IMG/VR virus record: IMGVR_UViG_3300044712_000557
Coordinates: 1-64,000 of that record
From: a virus
Reading direction: 5' to 3' (one strand)
Length of the DNA: 64,000 bases
Shown: piece by piece, positions 646 to 34,616 of the stretch
How positions within the stretch are numbered: position 1 is the stretch's first letter
How the letters are laid out: every line of letters starts with the position of its first letter
Notes under the pieces: model-generated
What the model was told of the DNA's origin: nothing
The model's database searches: none
Seen by the model: the letters and a program-made list of their open reading frames with translations, nothing else
Translations under genes and position numbers: made by a program

Positions 646-1293
646 TTACTCGGTGCTGCCTTTTGGCTTCTCATCGTTTTTGATCGTTGTCTTGAAGTAC
701 GCCTTCGCAGCATGATGATACACGACAACGCCCTCTGGGTCCATGAAGTTTGGTGCGCATCTTGAGCCAAACGTCTTTAAGTTGAAGATTTGATCTTCAA
801 CTTCACGAGTGAGGAACGGACCTTCGTAGAGAAGCGGCACAACGCCAAGGCCCTCGGGGATCGGAAGGCTAGCCGCAGCACGGCCAGACAAGACCGGACC
901 CCACTGAGACGTATTGAACAGCGAGAAACGCTTGTCGTTACCCGTGAGTCCGTACCTACGCTGGATACCCGCGCCCCAGAACTCTCCGTAGTGGCGACCT
1001 TCGCCTAGTACGTCAAAGAGCCCTTCGACACGCTCAAGCACCCAGGCAGCAAAACCGCTGTTGTCCTGGCCCTTTGTCGGATAGACCCAGCGGTTGCGCG
1101 AGCCGGCGTAGATATGGAAGCGTCCCTCTGGCCTATCAATCGAAACTAGAGGATCGGCCCATGCCGGTCCAGTCGGGCTCCACTCACAGCTCAGTGCATT
1201 TTGGATCAGGATCTGCCCGTTCGTCCCGTCGATCTTCTCGGTGATGGTGCAGTCGCGGAACAGCCTTGGGATCTTCTTGAACTCCTCAAACAT
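646..1293 (-). CDS. ATP-dependent RNA ligase (Rnl2-like nucleotidyltransferase domain)
   Basis: Motif I TEKIDGTN, then GSRNR, GEFWGAGIQ, FSLFN, PEGVVV, YFK. Confidence 0.8.
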   Translation of the reverse strand: MFEEFKKIPRLFRDCTITEKIDGTNGQILIQNALSCEWSPTGPAWADPLVSIDRPEGRFHIYAGSRNRWVYPTKGQDNSGFAAWVLERVEGLFDVLGEGRHYGEFWGAGIQRRYGLTGNDKRFSLFNTSQWGPVLSGRAAASLPIPEGLGVVPLLYEGPFLTREVEDQIFNLKTFGSRCAPNFMDPEGVVVYHHAAKAYFKTTIKNDEKPKGSTE

Positions 1294-7825: not shown

Positions 7826-8168
7826 GATGCACCTCGTCCACCGCTGGGATAGTTGTCAGAACTACGTCCTGGCTCTCGCACTGGTCGCTGGTCGGTCGCT
7901 GGTCGAGAGGCTTGAACGCGATCGGCACCTCATCGTCCTGGCGTGCCCTGTAGCGAGTCAGACGCGCGTCCCTGCACGCTTGCTCCCATCGCTCGTCCCT
8001 GCGTCGTCTACGGACGACCTTGGCCCTCTTGGCCATGGCTCGATCCGCTTGCGCTCCACGCAGGCCGATCGCGGCCAGGACGATCTCGCGCGCCTCGTCC
8101 AGATCTCCCACGAAAAGTTCGTATGCTGCGTCACGGGCCATGTCTTCCATCATCTCAGCCCGCTCCAA
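7815..8168 (-). CDS. hypothetical protein (first gene of the leftward unit)
   Basis: ORF adjacent to the strand switch. Confidence 0.5.
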   Translation of the reverse strand: MERAEMMEDMARDAAYELFVGDLDEAREIVLAAIGLRGAQADRAMAKRAKVVRRRRRDERWEQACRDARLTRYRARQDDEVPIAFKPLDQRPTSDQCESQDVVLTTIPAVDEVHLEQ

Positions 8169-8268
8169 GGTTCTCGCCCTGGTACGCAGATCTCTACTAG
8201 TTCTTTAGTAGCCGAAAACTTTATTACGAATGTCTTCAATAACTTATGGATGACACGTACGATTTCTA

Positions 8269-8339
8269 TTGACACCGTAGTCGGCAACTGTGCGATGATT
8301 CGCCTGTCACCAACCCCCCGAGGTTGGGATCTTTGAAAA
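8269..8339 (+). promoter_or_regulatory. putative promoter followed by rrn-type boxB hairpin and boxA antitermination site
   Basis: TTGACA at 8269; TGcGATGAT at 8291 (long spacer); CCAACC..GGTTGG hairpin 8310-8327; GATCTTTGAAAA 8328-8339. Confidence 0.6.
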
Positions 8340-9093
8340 CCTGGGTCGAAAGCGCGGTCGAGGGCGAAAGCCTTCGAAGGCGTAGGTTCCGAATCCCTTC
8401 TGGGATCGCGAACCCTGCGGTGCCTCGCAATCCACGGTGTCCTGGGACGCTCCAGGGGGCTGGGCTGGGACGAGATCCACGAGATGGGGATAAGCGGTTG
8501 CAAGAGGGAGTCGGAAGGCCTGGAGCGCAAAGCCAGATTCGGAATGCTCCAAACGGTGGCTGCCCTACAGCAAGTAGACCCTAGATAAGCCCCCGATGGT
8601 AAGAACAGCGATCGGACGCCGCTAGCGCAGTGCTAGACGCGTTTGAATCGTTGCTTAGAGTCTCGGTACCAGGGAGCGACGATGGATGCGGTGTAACACC
8701 TAGTGGGTGCGCTCGACAGCCATCTAGCCTCCTGGGCCGGTCCAGGGTTCAGCGCTAAGCGTACACAAGGCGACGCACCAGCACCTGGACAGACGGACGA
8801 AGGCAACGAGAGGGAGTGAGCAACTCCCGCAACGATCATTGATCTACGACAGCGACGCGGGGCGATTCCAGTGGCGACTATCCAGGCCTGAGGGCCAACC
8901 GGATGACAGCCGAGAGGATCGCCTTAGCGTGCGAGGCCAGAAAGAGCGCAGTCCGCGAAGTGAGCCTAAGACGCCCACGCGGCGAGGCAGCATTCAGCTA
9001 GTTGCCAAGTTCGACGGCCGATGTAGACGAGATGCGAAGTTCTAGGGTAGGGGGCGAGGAGGGGGCGAGGGAAACAGAACCTTCGCTCTCTTT
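8340..9093 (+). ncRNA. candidate large (~750 nt) structured non-coding RNA
   Basis: No credible ORF; many hairpins including GNRA-type loops; long-range ACCCTAGA(8578)/TCTAGGGT(9041); ends in a GC hairpin plus T run. Confidence 0.55.
9061..9093 (+). terminator. hairpin with short T tract, possible terminator or attenuator
   Basis: GGGGGCGAGGG-aaacagaa-CCTTCGCTCTC-TTT. Confidence 0.4.
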
Positions 9094-10080
9094 GCTATGT
9101 AGCCGAGCAGGCGCGTCCAGGCCCTGCTGCCAACGTGAGGTTGGTCCTTGAGAGGCGGCTACAGAGCAAAGGGACACACTCTCTTTTGGAGGATCACATG
9201 GACAGCATCCTGATCGAGAACGAGAACTTCTGGATCATCATCGACCCCAAGGACGGCTCGACGTGCGAGGTCCACTGCGCCGTCTCGATGCACACCGACT
9301 TCGACGTCTGGGTGTGCGTCTGGTCGGTGTACTCGTGGGATCGCTACACCCAGGCGCGCTTGACCTACCGCAGCTACTAGCGGGAGCCGGTGCGGGAGGA
9401 CAGCGTCCTGGACGAGGGAGAGATCCGATGATTTGGGTCATCGAGTCGTACGACAGCGAGCGTGAGCAGTGGCACCCAATCACTTGGAATTGCTACGACA
9501 CGCGTCGCGAGGCCAGGATCGTCCTGGCGCGGTTGCGCATGGGGCGCAAGGGTCGCATTCGAGCGTACACGCAAGCGTAGCAACTCTGAAAGCAGTCCGG
9601 GCTCGCGGAGGGCACCGTAGGGGCCAGCCTCAGTAGACCTCGGCTTGCTTCCTGGACTGTATTGAGCGTTGCTGCTTACACATCTCAAAACTAAGTGGAG
9701 GATGCGATGGCGACCTTCTATGCTCTGCCCCTTGCTGACAAGGGCTTCGTCCCGGTCAACGAGTTCAGCAATCCCGTGCGCTGGTACGTGGCTCAGGACG
9801 GAAAGGACTGGCCGGTCTACGGCCCGTACGCGTCGCGTGAGGCGGCTGAGGCTGAGGCCAAGCGTCGCTCTGGAGGCTTCTAATGCGCAAGTGCCAGAAG
9901 TGCAACGAGCCGTCTCTGACCGCTCAGTTTCGCGAGCGGTCGCTCCCTGGCCTCAAGATCCTCTGCGCCGAGTGCAACGTGGACGTGCGCACGTCCTCGA
10001 CGCGCAAGGTCACGTTCCAGACGCGCACGGTCGAGGACCGCTACACGCTGCTCGCGCGCAAGCACGGGCTGGCGTAGGCA

Positions 10081-10212
10081 ACGTGTCGTAAGCTGGCTGG
10101 AGAGCGGGCTACCGGCTCCCAGGGGCGACCAAGACAGGTAGCACGCGACGTTCGTAAGGCTGGCTGGATACCGGGGCACCGGGTACCAGGGGCCAAATCC
10201 AAGACAGGTGCC
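10081..10212 (+). ncRNA. tandem pair of a ~65-nt structured RNA motif
   Basis: Two copies of CGTAAG(G)CTGGCTGGA..CCAGGGGC..CCAAGACAGGT with compensatory stems GAGC/GCTC vs TACC/GGTA. Confidence 0.55.
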
Positions 10213-10690
10213 GCCTCAAAGCCGAGACTCAAGGTGTACCGTAATGAATCTCGCTAGCGCGGCGAGCGGTCTATAAACCACTTTGAGTCTCGACTTGGAG
10301 GCGATCATGGACGAGTCCTATAGCAATTCATTCGATGACTGCTGCCCTGAGTGCGGCGGTCTTGGCTGCGCCCTTGGAACCTTGGGCATGCTGCTCCATC
10401 TGCGTTGCCGTGACTGTGGCATGGACTGGTCGGTGCCTTCTCCTGACGCGTACGAGTCTGACTGGAGCGACAAGCTCTAGTCAACCAGCGCGAGCCTCGT
10501 CGCTTAGTAACGAGGCACCTTCTACGCTGAGCACGTAAGTGAGAGGCAAGCCTAGCGCCTGCAGTACTAGTCAACTCAGGCCTCCTAGGGCAGAGTCAGC
10601 ACGCTTGTCATCGTCCCGTCAGACTCAATCGGGATGTACGTGTTCAGCGTAGAGGGTTCGTTTCACGTCGCACTTGATTGGAGGTTGATC

Positions 10691-10978
10691 ATGTTCAACA
10701 CGCGTCAGGCCTACGGCTACGTCAACGTCAACCTGGGGCAGATGAGCGGCCTCGCGCAGATCGCGAAGCCCGTCGTGCGTCGCACCCTGGACGTGCAGCG
10801 CAAGCGCAACGGGCGCGCCCTGGTCAAGGCCCAGGCGCAGGCGCAGGCGGGCCAGTCCCCCAGCCTCCAGGCGCTCGTGGAGCGCAACAAGGCGGCGCGG
10901 CTGCAGCGCGAGGCCGAGCGCGAGGCGGCGCTGACCATCGTCTGCTCCAACGGTCGCACCATCCGCCCGATCAAGTAG
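10691..10978 (+). CDS. hypothetical early protein
   Basis: GGAGG then ATG; strong GC3 codon bias. Confidence 0.65.
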   Translation: MFNTRQAYGYVNVNLGQMSGLAQIAKPVVRRTLDVQRKRNGRALVKAQAQAQAGQSPSLQALVERNKAARLQREAEREAALTIVCSNGRTIRPIK

Positions 10979-10985
10979 GGGCATC

Positions 10986-11255
10986 ATGGACGCCAAGATC
11001 AACATCACCATCGGCAACAGCACCTTTGAGAAAGAGTACGTCGTGGGGCTCACGCGGGCATCGCGCGACTACGACTACTACGGGGTGATACAGGTCGAGA
11101 CGGGAAGCCAGCGTATCGTGGCGATCCCCGCTGAGGACGTGGAGATGCAGGTCGCTCGCTACGAGAGCGGCATGTACAACTTCGCGCCCTGCGGCTCCGA
11201 TCTTCTCGACGCGGAAGTGCTGATCGATCTGGTCGTCTCACGCTTGCTCAGGTAG
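10986..11255 (+). CDS. hypothetical early protein
   Basis: ORF with phage codon bias. Confidence 0.6.
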   Translation: MDAKINITIGNSTFEKEYVVGLTRASRDYDYYGVIQVETGSQRIVAIPAEDVEMQVARYESGMYNFAPCGSDLLDAEVLIDLVVSRLLR

Positions 11256-11541
11256 GGGGCTCATTATGCCGCGCTTCAAGCTGTACGTGACTGAGACGGT
11301 CGAGTACGTCATCCTCGTGGACGCTGGCAGCGAGGAAGAGGCGCGTGATGCGCTCGACGTGGCGGGAGTGGACTGCGGCGAGATCATGCACACCGAGCGC
11401 CACTCCGAGATCGAGCGTGTCGAGATGGAAGACAATGAGGACTGAGTCCTCCGGGCACGATCCAGTGGATGCCCTCTGGGTCGTGCCCATCATCATCCTG
11501 CTGTTCGCGTTCATGATTCACTTGATTTGAGGAGAAAGCAA

Positions 11542-12243
11542 ATGAAGTTCAACGCTGGCGACAAGGTTCGACATGTGAGCGGCCCGGTTCTCGGTACCGT
11601 GCTGAAAGACCCCGCCCCGTCTGCCCCCTTCGACATCGAAGGCGATACGTCAAAGTACGTCTTGATCCGATGGGACGACCAGGATGGTCCCCGTACGGAG
11701 TCTAACCTCCGAGATAACGTTGTGCTCGTGCAGCCCACTCCCCTCGTTGAGCCCGGCAAGGAAGACGGCATCAAGGAAGAGGAGGTCGTTGTGTCCAAGC
11801 CCCTGACTCAGCGTGAGCATCTGGCGATCCTGCGCGACTACGCTCTCGACCTGGGAGCCGTTGCCAACGTGCGCAAGAACAGCTACGGGGAGTACGAGGC
11901 GCGCGTCAAGATGAACGGCGAGCGCGAGCCCTACGTGGCTTTTGAGAGCACGTTCTCGGACGCGTACGACACCGTCAAGGCGATGCTGGACGAGATCGCC
12001 AAGCGTCAGCGTGCTGAGGGCGAGCGCCGCGAGCGCGAGTACCAGCACGAGCTAGACAAGGCTTACGAGCAGGCGCGCACGATCATGGGCTTCGTCAACT
12101 GCACCGTGACGCGTGATGGTGAGACTGTGACGTTCCATAGCCCGAAGACGGGCAGCCACTCGCTCTGTATGGCCTTGGGCGTGCGTCCCGTGTCTGACCT
12201 GATCGCTCACGCGTGCGGGTTCGCTGAGCAGCAGACGCACTGA
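11542..12243 (+). CDS. hypothetical early protein
   Basis: GAGGAG RBS; long ORF with codon bias. Confidence 0.7.
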   Translation: MKFNAGDKVRHVSGPVLGTVLKDPAPSAPFDIEGDTSKYVLIRWDDQDGPRTESNLRDNVVLVQPTPLVEPGKEDGIKEEEVVVSKPLTQREHLAILRDYALDLGAVANVRKNSYGEYEARVKMNGEREPYVAFESTFSDAYDTVKAMLDEIAKRQRAEGERREREYQHELDKAYEQARTIMGFVNCTVTRDGETVTFHSPKTGSHSLCMALGVRPVSDLIAHACGFAEQQTH

Positions 12244-12429
12244 TCGTTCGTACCCTCTCCCCTTGGGGTCCAGGGGTGATGCTGACTGCGGTGCGCGTCA
12301 GGCCCAGGGATAGGCTGACTACGTCGCGCCCGAGGAGCGCTATCGCATCGCAGGGCAGTGCAGAGCAGTTATCCAGGGGCGCACCCCTTGATCGCTCACA
12401 GGGGGTGCGCCTCAAGCAATGAGGAAGGC

Positions 12430-12888
12430 ATGCGAGCACCCAAGGTTGAAGTCACACTGGATCCCGTTGACGCTTGCAAGTCAGTCGTTCTAGTCAACGG
12501 CAAGAGGGCAGCCTTCACCTTTGAGGCTGTCTCGTGCCGCGTGATCTTTATGACTGAGCGTTACGTCGTGAAGGTTGTCGATCCTAACGCGAACGACGCT
12601 GGCTACAGCGACCTCAATCCCAGGGCTCAGAATCGATGCGAGGTTCGCACCTGGAAGCGCATCTCCAAGAGCGACGATAGGGCACGCTTCGCAGAGATGC
12701 TCTGCTGGGATCCCAAGTACACCTGGGTGTGCCAGGAGCGTGTTCGTACGTCTCGGCGAGCTACAACTCAAGAGCGCAACTTCCTAGAGGAAGTAGCCGC
12801 ACGCTACAACGTTGGCGACATCCATCGTGGCAACATTGGCAGACGTAAAGGACAGCCAGTCATCCTCGACTATGGCTGCAAAGGCTAG
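12430..12888 (+). CDS. minimal protein-kinase-like protein
   Basis: YVVKV (Lys), QNRCE (alphaC Glu), GDIHRGNIG (catalytic loop), ILDYG. Confidence 0.7.
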   Translation: MRAPKVEVTLDPVDACKSVVLVNGKRAAFTFEAVSCRVIFMTERYVVKVVDPNANDAGYSDLNPRAQNRCEVRTWKRISKSDDRARFAEMLCWDPKYTWVCQERVRTSRRATTQERNFLEEVAARYNVGDIHRGNIGRRKGQPVILDYGCKG

Positions 12889-13479
12889 GAGGCCTATGGC
12901 CCTTTCGGCGTACCTGAGTCCCTCCAAGGCTGCCCGCAAGGCTGCCTACTGTCGTGACGTGGAGCGACTTGTTGTCGCTGCTCGTCCCGACGTGGCGGGA
13001 CGAATGGATTGGGATGACGTGCTCTATCACTTCCACTACGGCCATTCCGTAGAGGAAGCGGTGGCTGCCATCCTGAGCCATTGACGGCACCAGCGCCTCG
13101 TCCTGCCGCCTAGTAGCGGGACGCTCGTACACCCCAGGGAGTGAGGCGTGGGGTGCCTGGGCATTTACGCCTAGGCACTTGCAACCAGTAACGCTCACGC
13201 GTTGCAACGTGAGCCTGCTGCCATTGCCTCACTTCCTGAGTTGTACGAATTGGAGGAAGACAATGAGCAACATCGTCTGGGTCATTGAGGTTCGCCGTGG
13301 TCGCAACAAGCGTTGGGAGCCGTATCACACCACGCAGGATCGGCATCATGCCGTGAGCCTCATGGAGCGTGTCTCTCGCGAGGCTGCCAAGGATCGGTTC
13401 CCTCATCGCAAGAGCGAGTCGTTCAGGCTGTCTGTCGCAGCATTGATCCCCGTTGCGGACGTGCTCTAGTGAGGATGCC

Positions 13480-15802: not shown

Positions 15803-16240
15803 GTGAGTACCATACTCTTCCTCGATGACATGCCGATCAGGCACACCGTCTTCAAGGATCTGGCCGCCAGGGATGGCTTCCTGGTGGACTCTGCCTACAC
15901 CGCAGAGGAGGCCATCAGGCTCCTGGAGTCACACGAGTACGTAGGGGCATCCCTCGACCACGACCTGGGAGAGGATCACTACATGGGTCCGTACGTCTCG
16001 CCTAGCATGGGCGGGACAGCCCACAGTGGTCGTGCTGTGGCTCGATGGATCGCCGAGCACGGCAAGCCGTTCTTCGTGATGATCCACAGCTACAATCCAG
16101 ACGGGGCAAGGGAGATGTTCCAGATTGTTTGGGAGTCGGACCACCCCCTGAATGTTCGTAGTCAGCCATTCAACACTGCTGCCTTCAGGACATGGTTCAG
16201 TGACATTCACTGGTCAGAGGAAGCGAAGGAGGAGAAATGA
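15803..16240 (+). CDS. cyclic-phosphate-processing receiver (REC-like) domain protein
   Basis: ILFLDD...SLDHDLG...IHSYNPDGA. Confidence 0.75.
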   Translation: MSTILFLDDMPIRHTVFKDLAARDGFLVDSAYTAEEAIRLLESHEYVGASLDHDLGEDHYMGPYVSPSMGGTAHSGRAVARWIAEHGKPFFVMIHSYNPDGAREMFQIVWESDHPLNVRSQPFNTAAFRTWFSDIHWSEEAKEEK

Positions 16241-16605
16241 TCACGTATCACGAAGAGTACCCCAGCCTTGATCGGCCGCTTCGTGCGGTGACGTTGTCGG
16301 ACGAGAACTGCCTGCTCACGTTCTCGTTCACTGGTGGGAGCGTGGCGCAGTACCGTGCGGTGGGCGACTGCTGCTCGCACTCCTGGATCGAGCACCTGGA
16401 GACGCCTAACGAGTTTGAGGGGCGTAGGATCGTTGCCGTGGAAGACGTGGACGTTGTCCCCCAGCCCGAAAACGACCCCGAAGAGTACGAATACATCAGG
16501 GTCTACAAGACCGTCTTCCGCCTCGACAACGGGGAGGCGATCACGGCCGAGTACCGCAACAGCAGCAACGGCTACTACGGTGGCTGGCTGGAGAGGATCT
16601 CATGA
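16237..16605 (+). CDS. conserved phage protein (DCC...SNGYYGG)
   Basis: GDCCSHSW and SNGYYGG motifs; AGGAGG RBS. Confidence 0.65.
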   Translation: MITYHEEYPSLDRPLRAVTLSDENCLLTFSFTGGSVAQYRAVGDCCSHSWIEHLETPNEFEGRRIVAVEDVDVVPQPENDPEEYEYIRVYKTVFRLDNGEAITAEYRNSSNGYYGGWLERIS

Positions 16606-34435: not shown

Positions 34436-34507
34436 GGGAGTGGGTGCTGAGCACGGGGCAGCCTCCAAAGCTGAACCGGCAGGGTTCGATTCCTTGCACT
34501 CCCGCCA
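34436..34507 (+). tRNA. tRNA-Trp(CCA)
   Basis: GGGAGTG/CACTCCC acceptor; CT-CCA-AA loop; TTCGATT; CCA end. Confidence 0.85.
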
Positions 34508-34616
34508 TCCTGCTCGTGCCGAGAAGGGCATGAGAGCCAGTTGGAGGATGTAGCTGGCACGGCGCGCACTGATCGCCGGGATGTCTTTGACAACGCGGAT
34601 CGTAAGTAACTACTGA

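Follow-up and report, generated by a model that had tools for sequence, protein, structure and literature searches.

Positions 8269-9197 of the analysed DNA hold, with a probability of about 0.6, a promoter and an untranslated leader of ~890 nt that precede a rightward early operon, the leader being protected by antitermination and ending in a new cis-acting 3' RNA domain. The window, i.e. the whole stretch of 64,000 nt that was analysed, comprises the initial 64 kb of an IMG/VR phage record that is 93,162 bp long and carries terminal repeats. The phage has a G+C content of ~60% and a large tRNA array at 34.4-44.2 kb. Three relatives, all uncultured (G003, L028 and L214), were compared with it, making four phages in all, and the features of the leader are collected in Table 1.

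Table 1 Features of the leader region in window coordinates.
Feature	Position	Strand	Basis or remark
Upstream motif and -35 hexamer TTGACA (8269-8274), putative rightward early promoter	8254-8274	+	Word CACGTACGATTTnTnTTGAC also in G003
-10-like hexamer GATGAT (GATMAT-type)	8294-8299	+	19 nt after the -35; weak match
boxB-like hairpin, 6-bp stem and 6-nt loop, CCAACC/GGTTGG	8310-8327	+	Pair probability 0.99
boxA-like word GATCTTTGAAAAC	8328-8340	+	Consensus matches; L028 and L214 counterparts
Variable gene-free spacer	8341-8840	+	No significant alignment with any relative
Domain A, multi-branched fold closed by 8841-8847/9023-9028	8841-9028	+	Model R2; comparison with L214
Domain A, inner helix and inner hairpin	8852-8867/8917-8932; 8986-8991/9001-9006	+	Comparison with L214
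Domain B hairpin P1, GCGAGG-type stem	9064-9087	+	In four of four phages; loop lengths vary
Domain B P2, 17-19-bp stem with one central mismatch, closing a four-way junction of three hairpins	9087-9175	+	In four of four phages
Shine-Dalgarno GGAGGA and start codon ATG of the 60-aa first early gene	9188-9200	+	Sequence; start-codon/Shine-Dalgarno scan

Gene-free stretch at the strand switch

The 1044-nt stretch 8154-9197 lacks a credible gene and is bordered on the left by a minus-strand gene with its start codon at 8153 and on the right by the plus-strand gene that begins at 9198 behind GGAGGA. Stops interrupt all three plus frames, Pfam and PHROG searches with ORFs from both strands gave no match, no codon-position GC signal resembling that of the neighbouring genes was found, and no start codon stands behind a strong Shine-Dalgarno sequence until 9198. 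An earlier reading made from the letters alone (hereafter the sequence-only reading) had likewise seen no credible gene, which the broken frames, the empty searches and the missing GC signal bear out; it had closed the feature at 9093, short of its true end at 9197.

Unrecognised small protein genes have a next to negligible chance of accounting for the stretch. ORFs of 68-126 codons are present on both strands and one frame displays a mild coding-like GC pattern at 8350-8650, but that frame contains no start codon over its first 49 codons. In addition to the lack of Pfam and PHROG matches, the leaders of this phage, L028 and G003 contain no internal strong Shine-Dalgarno sequence with a start codon, and the only peptide conserved among these three is the translated RNA domain.

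Relatives and shared organisation

G003, a complete 92.5-kb record, was found via its DnaB (56% identical), L028 via a conserved 122-aa protein encoded 7 kb downstream (58% identical) and L214 via a leftward neighbour gene (59% identical). G003 represents the same genome type, reverse-complemented and with its ends placed elsewhere; gene order is common from 16.2 kb onward, and the AAA ATPase lies 9.3 kb beyond the end of the leader in this phage versus 9.05 kb in G003. Homologues of both leftward genes adjoin the promoter in L028 and L214. All four phages follow one plan, namely a TTGAC -35 element, a conserved -10-like hexamer, a gene-free leader, and a Shine-Dalgarno sequence with ATG, with total leader lengths of 891, 915, 921 and 993 nt. 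As phage genomes are compact, the retention of 1 kb of untranslated sequence in front of the early operon by four divergent phages calls for an explanation. The first genes behind the four leaders gave no blastp match among them at E <= 10 and are thus unrelated, which suggests that the leader element serves the operon rather than one protein.

Comparison with cultured phages by blastn gave no match, and the closest DnaB from a cultured phage shows 27% identity. No relative of the 60-aa first gene was found in IMG/VR, and the 112-aa leftward gene was a singleton in a set of 5.8 billion proteins. Scanning metagenomes and genome collections with the 122-aa protein yielded distant relatives only, none with the leader. 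A crude ORF-length map of gene-free gaps failed to flag this leader.

The 122-aa protein (16237-16605) contains invariant GDCCSHSW and EYRNSSNGYYGG motifs, and its relatives occur in 62 IMG/VR contigs of very different G+C content. Records G004 (57,773 bp) and G005/L028 (34,402 bp) come from one sample (3300013232) and add up to ~92 kb, like this phage and G003; they are probably two pieces of one genome.

Putative promoter, boxB-like hairpin and boxA-like word

The promoter word CACGTACGATTTnTnTTGAC occurs once in the window versus 0.03 occurrences expected and is common to this phage and G003, where its place is syntenic; the TTGAC within the -35 element is kept in all four phages. The -10-like hexamer GATGAT aligns with TAGTCT in L214 and TAGACT in G003, both at the 19-nt spacing, and the spacing in L028 is 16 nt. 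A generic sigma-70 scan did not call GATGAT, with its 19-nt spacer, as a -10 element. Transcription would start near 8305.

Beyond G003, a scan of IMG/VR with the promoter word returned only two A+T-rich phage contigs. The same 20-nt word CACGTACGATTTTTATTGAC lies in the divergent promoter region of L013 (3146-3165) and L015 (4094-4113), which are A+T-rich, near-identical at this place and otherwise unrelated to this phage. The sharing may be due to chance or to a common design of an upstream element plus a -35 hexamer.

The stem of the hairpin, CCAACC/GGTTGG here, is CCGACC/GGTCGG in L028 and CCGCC/GGCGG in L214, i.e. it has undergone compensatory changes. The loops differ completely among the phages, which makes a loop-specific protein unlikely. 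The word that follows, GATCTTTGAAAAC, agrees at 11 of 13 positions with the B. subtilis rrn boxA consensus AUGAUCUUUGAAA, to whose core GATCTTTGAAA is identical, and at 9 of 11 positions with the gamma-proteobacterial boxA consensus GYTCTTTAANA (PMC5725501), with the caveat that either consensus may not be that of the host. The B. subtilis consensus likewise follows a small 5' hairpin (PMC13753749). L028 and L214 carry GCTGTTTGAMAAC, and in the three leaders the boxA-like word starts 56-60 nt from the -35 element. A 5-6-bp hairpin followed within 1-2 nt by the boxA-like word is therefore a property of three of the four leaders; that of G003 contains no boxA within two mismatches.

The small hairpin thus lies directly upstream of boxA and near the putative 5' end of the transcript, and ~860 nt of gene-free RNA follow downstream. 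A Nus-loading signal is expected ahead of long untranslated transcripts (review, PMC12360218). The TTGACA, hairpin and word GATCTTTGAAAA described by the sequence-only reading at the strand switch are all present there, TTGACA at 8269-8274, the hairpin at 8310-8327 and the boxA-like word at 8328-8340. Its description of an rrn-style boxB-boxA signal is the best-supported part of its finding, owing to the retained hairpin and word, the consensus match, the second copy at the tRNA array, and the position ahead of untranslated RNA, where a boxA is expected; Nus binding and function are predictions.

Second boxA-like copy at the tRNA array

The 93-kb genome contains only two copies of the pattern STTTGAMAAC, each preceded by a hairpin and lying on the transcribed strand. 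The second unit (34561-34594) consists of the hairpin CGGCG/CGCCG and GTCTTTGACAAC. It is located between the first tRNA (Trp-like, ~34436-34508; unit region 34436-34616) and the main tRNA array, so that it precedes ~10 kb of tRNA genes. Hairpin and word after tRNA-Trp are kept in G003 and G002, and G004 has the variant GAATTGACAAC. This unit looks like an rRNA-type boxA for a tRNA operon. Because untranslated tRNA arrays are an expected place for Nus-type antitermination, the second copy supports the antitermination reading of the first. The suggestion of an early antitermination leader made by the sequence-only reading thereby gains support from three lines: a hairpin with boxA in three of four leaders, the match to the rrn consensus and the recurrence at the tRNA array.

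Folding of the single sequence

Every helix string listed by the sequence-only reading exists in the leader, but such strings are no more numerous than in shuffled sequence or in coding DNA of the phage. Perfect complementary 8-mers number 12, compared with 6.4 +/- 3.3 in shuffles and 2-30 in coding controls, and short-range complementary 6- and 7-mers are fewer than the shuffle mean. In the single-sequence ensemble, the pair probability exceeds 0.9 for GAGGGC/GCCTTC, GGGAGT/ACTCCC, GTCCAGG/CCTGGAC and GGCGATTC/GGATCGCC, and amounts to 0.06 for CCGCG/CGCGG and 0.14 for GGCAGC/GTTGCC. The long-range pair ACCCTAGA/TCTAGGGT, which was said to enclose ~470 nt, has a pair probability of 0.00 and is not confirmed.

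For the plus strand, the z of the folding energy is -3.4 over 8300-9200 and -2.4 over the middle. This strand is more stable than its shuffles, which is not so for the minus strand. In ten coding segments taken from the phage itself, z averaged -2.2, with a standard deviation of 1.4 and a minimum of -4.9. Thermodynamic stability as a sign of an ornate RNA was rejected, as coding controls fold equally well. Helix counts and energies both fall within the shuffle or coding background, and hence no excess of structure is evident from the sequence by itself; only the relatives provide real support, which is limited to 8841-9178 and to the 5' hairpin with boxA. Helices read by eye in G+C-rich sequence call for caution, as they were at chance level and the relatives alone singled out the real ones.

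Two coding segments a short way downstream, starting at 10300 and 12400 (within 10300-13100), have z values of -4.6 and -4.9 and fold more strongly than the leader. A tandem RNA motif at 10081-10212 was also part of the sequence-only reading.

Variable middle of the leader

Local alignment of 8341-8840 with the relatives gave z values of +0.8, -0.8, -0.5 and 0.0, and none of the leaders, compared two by two, are significantly similar in this part. Conserved structure between the middle of this leader and that of L214 was likewise not detected (alifold z -1.2 and +1.6, with compensatory counts at the null level). The whole leaders of this phage, L028 and G003 are G-over-C throughout, and the three contain no C-over-G (rut-like) window. 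A few short words turn up in much the same order in several of the leaders, GCGCGGTC at 47-94 nt from the start and GGGAAGCG in mid-leader. The ~500-nt middle appears to be a fast-evolving spacer that is kept in presence and length only.

In the unalignable middle, L214 (~1190-1204, minus strand) and L028 (~2172-2186) share the exact 15-mer ATCCACAGGGAAGCG, with a local-alignment z of 3.0. G003 contains two GGGAAG-containing copies of a word similar to ATCCACAGGGAAGCG, and this window contains none. The G003 leader (L011 4917-5063) also has three direct repeats of ~16-27 nt of the TTAGAAGC type, spaced 56 and 69 nt apart, which have no counterpart in this window.

Rfam searches of the whole window at the gathering score returned tRNAs only, and at E <= 10 the region 8100-9300 gave three chance-level matches to unrelated small families. 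None of the Rfam families matches, including GOLLD, ROOL, OLE, HEARO, RNase P, and group I and group II introns. No terminator was found between leader and genes.

These results bear on the proposal that the whole ~750-900 nt is one stand-alone structured ncRNA of a new GOLLD/ROOL-size class, released from its transcript and acting in trans, as a ribozyme or as a scaffold. A leader length held at 0.89-0.99 kb in four phages, a plus strand that outfolds its shuffles when the minus strand does not, the real conserved multi-branched fold of the 3' 340 nt described below, and the short words that recur roughly in order, among them the 15-mer of L214 and L028, would all fit such an RNA. However, Rfam searches give no match up to E <= 10, neither sequence nor structure is conserved with the closest relative in the 5' and middle thirds, the folding energy lies inside the coding background of the phage, the long-range closing pair has a pair probability of 0.00, and no terminator separates RNA and genes. 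A stand-alone RNA is accordingly improbable, and the ~750-nt GOLLD/ROOL-class ncRNA of the sequence-only reading finds no support in that form, with no Rfam match, ~500 unconserved nt after boxA, no predicted closing pair and stability at the coding level.

Conserved fold at the 3' end

Domain A is common to this phage and its closest relative L214 only, i.e. to two sequences, each of which also folds so alone. Its helices 1, 2, 5 and 9 contain 3, 5, 3 and 1 compensatory pairs, respectively; the GGCGATTC/GGATCGCC helix (5 compensatory pairs) and the GGCAGC/GTTGCC hairpin (1) belong to it. Model R2 finds no copy of Domain A in L028 or G003.

Domain B (9064-9175), a hairpin followed by a four-way junction, ends all four leaders. 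For P2, 98.4% of the cells are paired in three phages, and 13 of 22 pairs are compensatory compared with 0-1 in slid controls. Model R1, built from three sequences, recovered the fourth phage, L214, with an E value of 2e-10, and with four sequences 18 of 34 pairs are compensatory. Individual sequences adopt the domain's fold unaided, with single-sequence z values of -3.9, -5.8 and -3.95. In three phages the loop of the first inner hairpin is CGCGTMCAGNC, and it differs in L214.

The consensus of 8826-9200 with L214, which spans Domains A and B, comprises 89 pairs, 25 of them compensatory; slid controls gave 0-3 compensatory pairs, column shuffles gave 10.2 +/- 2.5 and never more than 19, and the z of the energy is -9.7. 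The consensus energy is -113.0 kcal/mol in the forward direction versus -83.7 kcal/mol for the reverse complement, a difference of 29 in favour of the former, and several of the kept pairs are G-U. Both observations indicate a plus-strand RNA rather than a DNA cruciform.

Compensatory changes in relatives are thus present in the 5' hairpin and in 8841-9178, and none above the null level was seen in the middle against L214. The structured RNA of no known family proposed by the sequence-only reading stands for the 3' ~340 nt and is not supported for the rest of the ~750 nt. Two or three of the helices it had listed lie within the 3' ~340 nt, namely GGCGATTC/GGATCGCC, GGCAGC/GTTGCC and, roughly, CCGCG/CGCGG. 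A scan for Domain B elsewhere with its loop word and model R1 gave at least 119 word matches, none confirmed by R1, and a 17-mer scan for Domain A gave three chance matches only; neither domain was found beyond these phages in the collections scanned.

A function of the stretch as DNA, whether as an origin of replication, as a region of packaging or of the genome termini, or as a regulatory spacer between divergent early operons, would make the RNA features incidental. The stretch does lie at a strand switch, a frequent site of origins and control regions, over ~500 nt its length is kept rather than its sequence, the G003 version has its three direct repeats, and the position of the terminal repeats varies from record to record, so that the records need not begin and end at the true genome ends. 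On the other hand, 8154-9197 contains no iteron-like repeats and has the ~60% G+C of the genes outside the AT-rich promoter region at 8170-8260, the compensatory changes include G-U pairs and favour the plus strand in energy, and boxA is an RNA signal that recurs before the tRNA array. A purely DNA-level role is highly improbable on this evidence.

Position and possible role of the 3' domain

In this phage, 13-23 nt remain between the end of the conserved fold and the ribosome-binding site, and across the four phages P2 ends 0-30 nt before the Shine-Dalgarno sequence. P2, an irregular stem some two helical turns in length, stands between leader and first gene, as an RNase III-type stem does; so long a stem immediately ahead of the ribosome-binding site fits a site of processing and stabilisation of the RNase III type like those of T7 and lambda.

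The main alternative for the 3' domain is a put-like or switch-like role, in which the domain would itself be a regulator rather than a processing site, either a polymerase modifier of the put/EAR kind or a riboswitch-like or protein-binding switch at the first ribosome-binding site. Domain B is kept even in G003, whose leader has no boxA, and this fits an independent antitermination or control role. The arms of P1 look like a Shine-Dalgarno sequence paired to an anti-Shine-Dalgarno sequence, which the 3' arm resembles, and the lowest-energy folds of L028 and G003 pair the true Shine-Dalgarno sequence with sequence just 5' of P2. The inner-hairpin loop shared by three phages would also suit a regulator, but it is not that of L214, sequestration of the Shine-Dalgarno sequence is not uniform among the four phages, and the architecture is not the two-stem put fold. 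Taken together, regulation by the domain itself is unlikely. Visual inspection shows complementarity between the Domain B loop and the 5' leader in L028 (8 nt) and, interrupted by a bulge, in this phage; it is at chance level and does not occur in G003.

Proposed mechanism

In the antitermination-leader reading, which we prefer, host RNA polymerase would start near 8305, and the nascent hairpin and boxA would recruit NusB/S10 and other Nus factors as on rRNA operons. The Nus-loaded polymerase could then resist Rho, first along ~0.9 kb of untranslated RNA with G over C (rut-poor) and then through the early genes that follow. The 3' domain would act in cis on the whole operon. Its most likely role is double-strand-specific, RNase III-type processing together with 5'-end stabilisation, by which the leader would be cut from the early mRNA, cf. 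T7 R0.3 and lambda N, and it might also govern access to the first ribosome-binding site. The transcription start, the continuity of the transcript with the genes and the processing are all inferred.

It is conceivable, if doubtful, that the 3' ~340 nt (8841-9175), alone or with the 0.9-kb leader, represents a new class of large phage RNA that is active in early infection. Such an RNA would be made under rRNA-type antitermination and would take the form of an element binding polymerase or ribosome, or of a stable RNA, released by processing, that sequesters a host factor; it would then be more than a passive processing hairpin.

The arrangement suggests that an uncultured, tRNA-rich phage lineage sets a host rRNA-type antitermination signal before both its early leader and its tRNA array. 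The covariation-supported fold of ~340 nt is new and absent from RNA family libraries, and, should its role be an active one, it would join the few large RNAs known from phages.

Comparison with known systems

The leader shares with GOLLD, ROOL, OLE and HEARO its size class, if counted as a whole, and the context of a tRNA-rich phage. It differs in that no covariance model matches at E <= 10, only ~340 nt are conserved and the RNA is not separated from the downstream genes.

HK022 putL/putR and EAR are cis-acting RNAs that act as processive antiterminators, put being formed by two stem-loops in ~70 nt. The point of resemblance is that a conserved RNA fold within the early leader of a phage acts on an operon and not on a single gene. 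In contrast to the two stem-loops of put, Domain B comprises a hairpin and a four-way junction.

T7 has the RNase III site R0.3 in its early leader, and in lambda the N leader contains nutL and an RNase III hairpin before the N ribosome-binding site. Common to these and the present leader are an early promoter for host polymerase, some hundred untranslated nt and a long irregular hairpin before the first early gene. The present leader is 2-4 times longer, its hairpin closes a four-way junction and follows a second domain of 190 nt, there is no sequence similarity, and RNase III cleavage is here a proposal. A lambda-type nut site was considered and rejected, as the hairpin here precedes boxA, whereas in nut boxA precedes boxB, whose loop is bound by an N-like protein of the phage, and the loops differ completely.

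The rrn leader is composed of a boxB hairpin, boxA and boxC, and the antitermination complex contains NusA, NusB, NusE and NusG, SuhB and S4. Duplex folding of long segments in search of an rrn-type leader-trailer helix gave just full-length duplexes and was uninformative. The present element is an mRNA leader rather than an rRNA leader, no boxC was found, and one of the four phages is without the hairpin and boxA. It has a promoter-proximal hairpin and directly behind it a boxA-like word, in the order of rrn and not of lambda nut, ahead of a long untranslated RNA.
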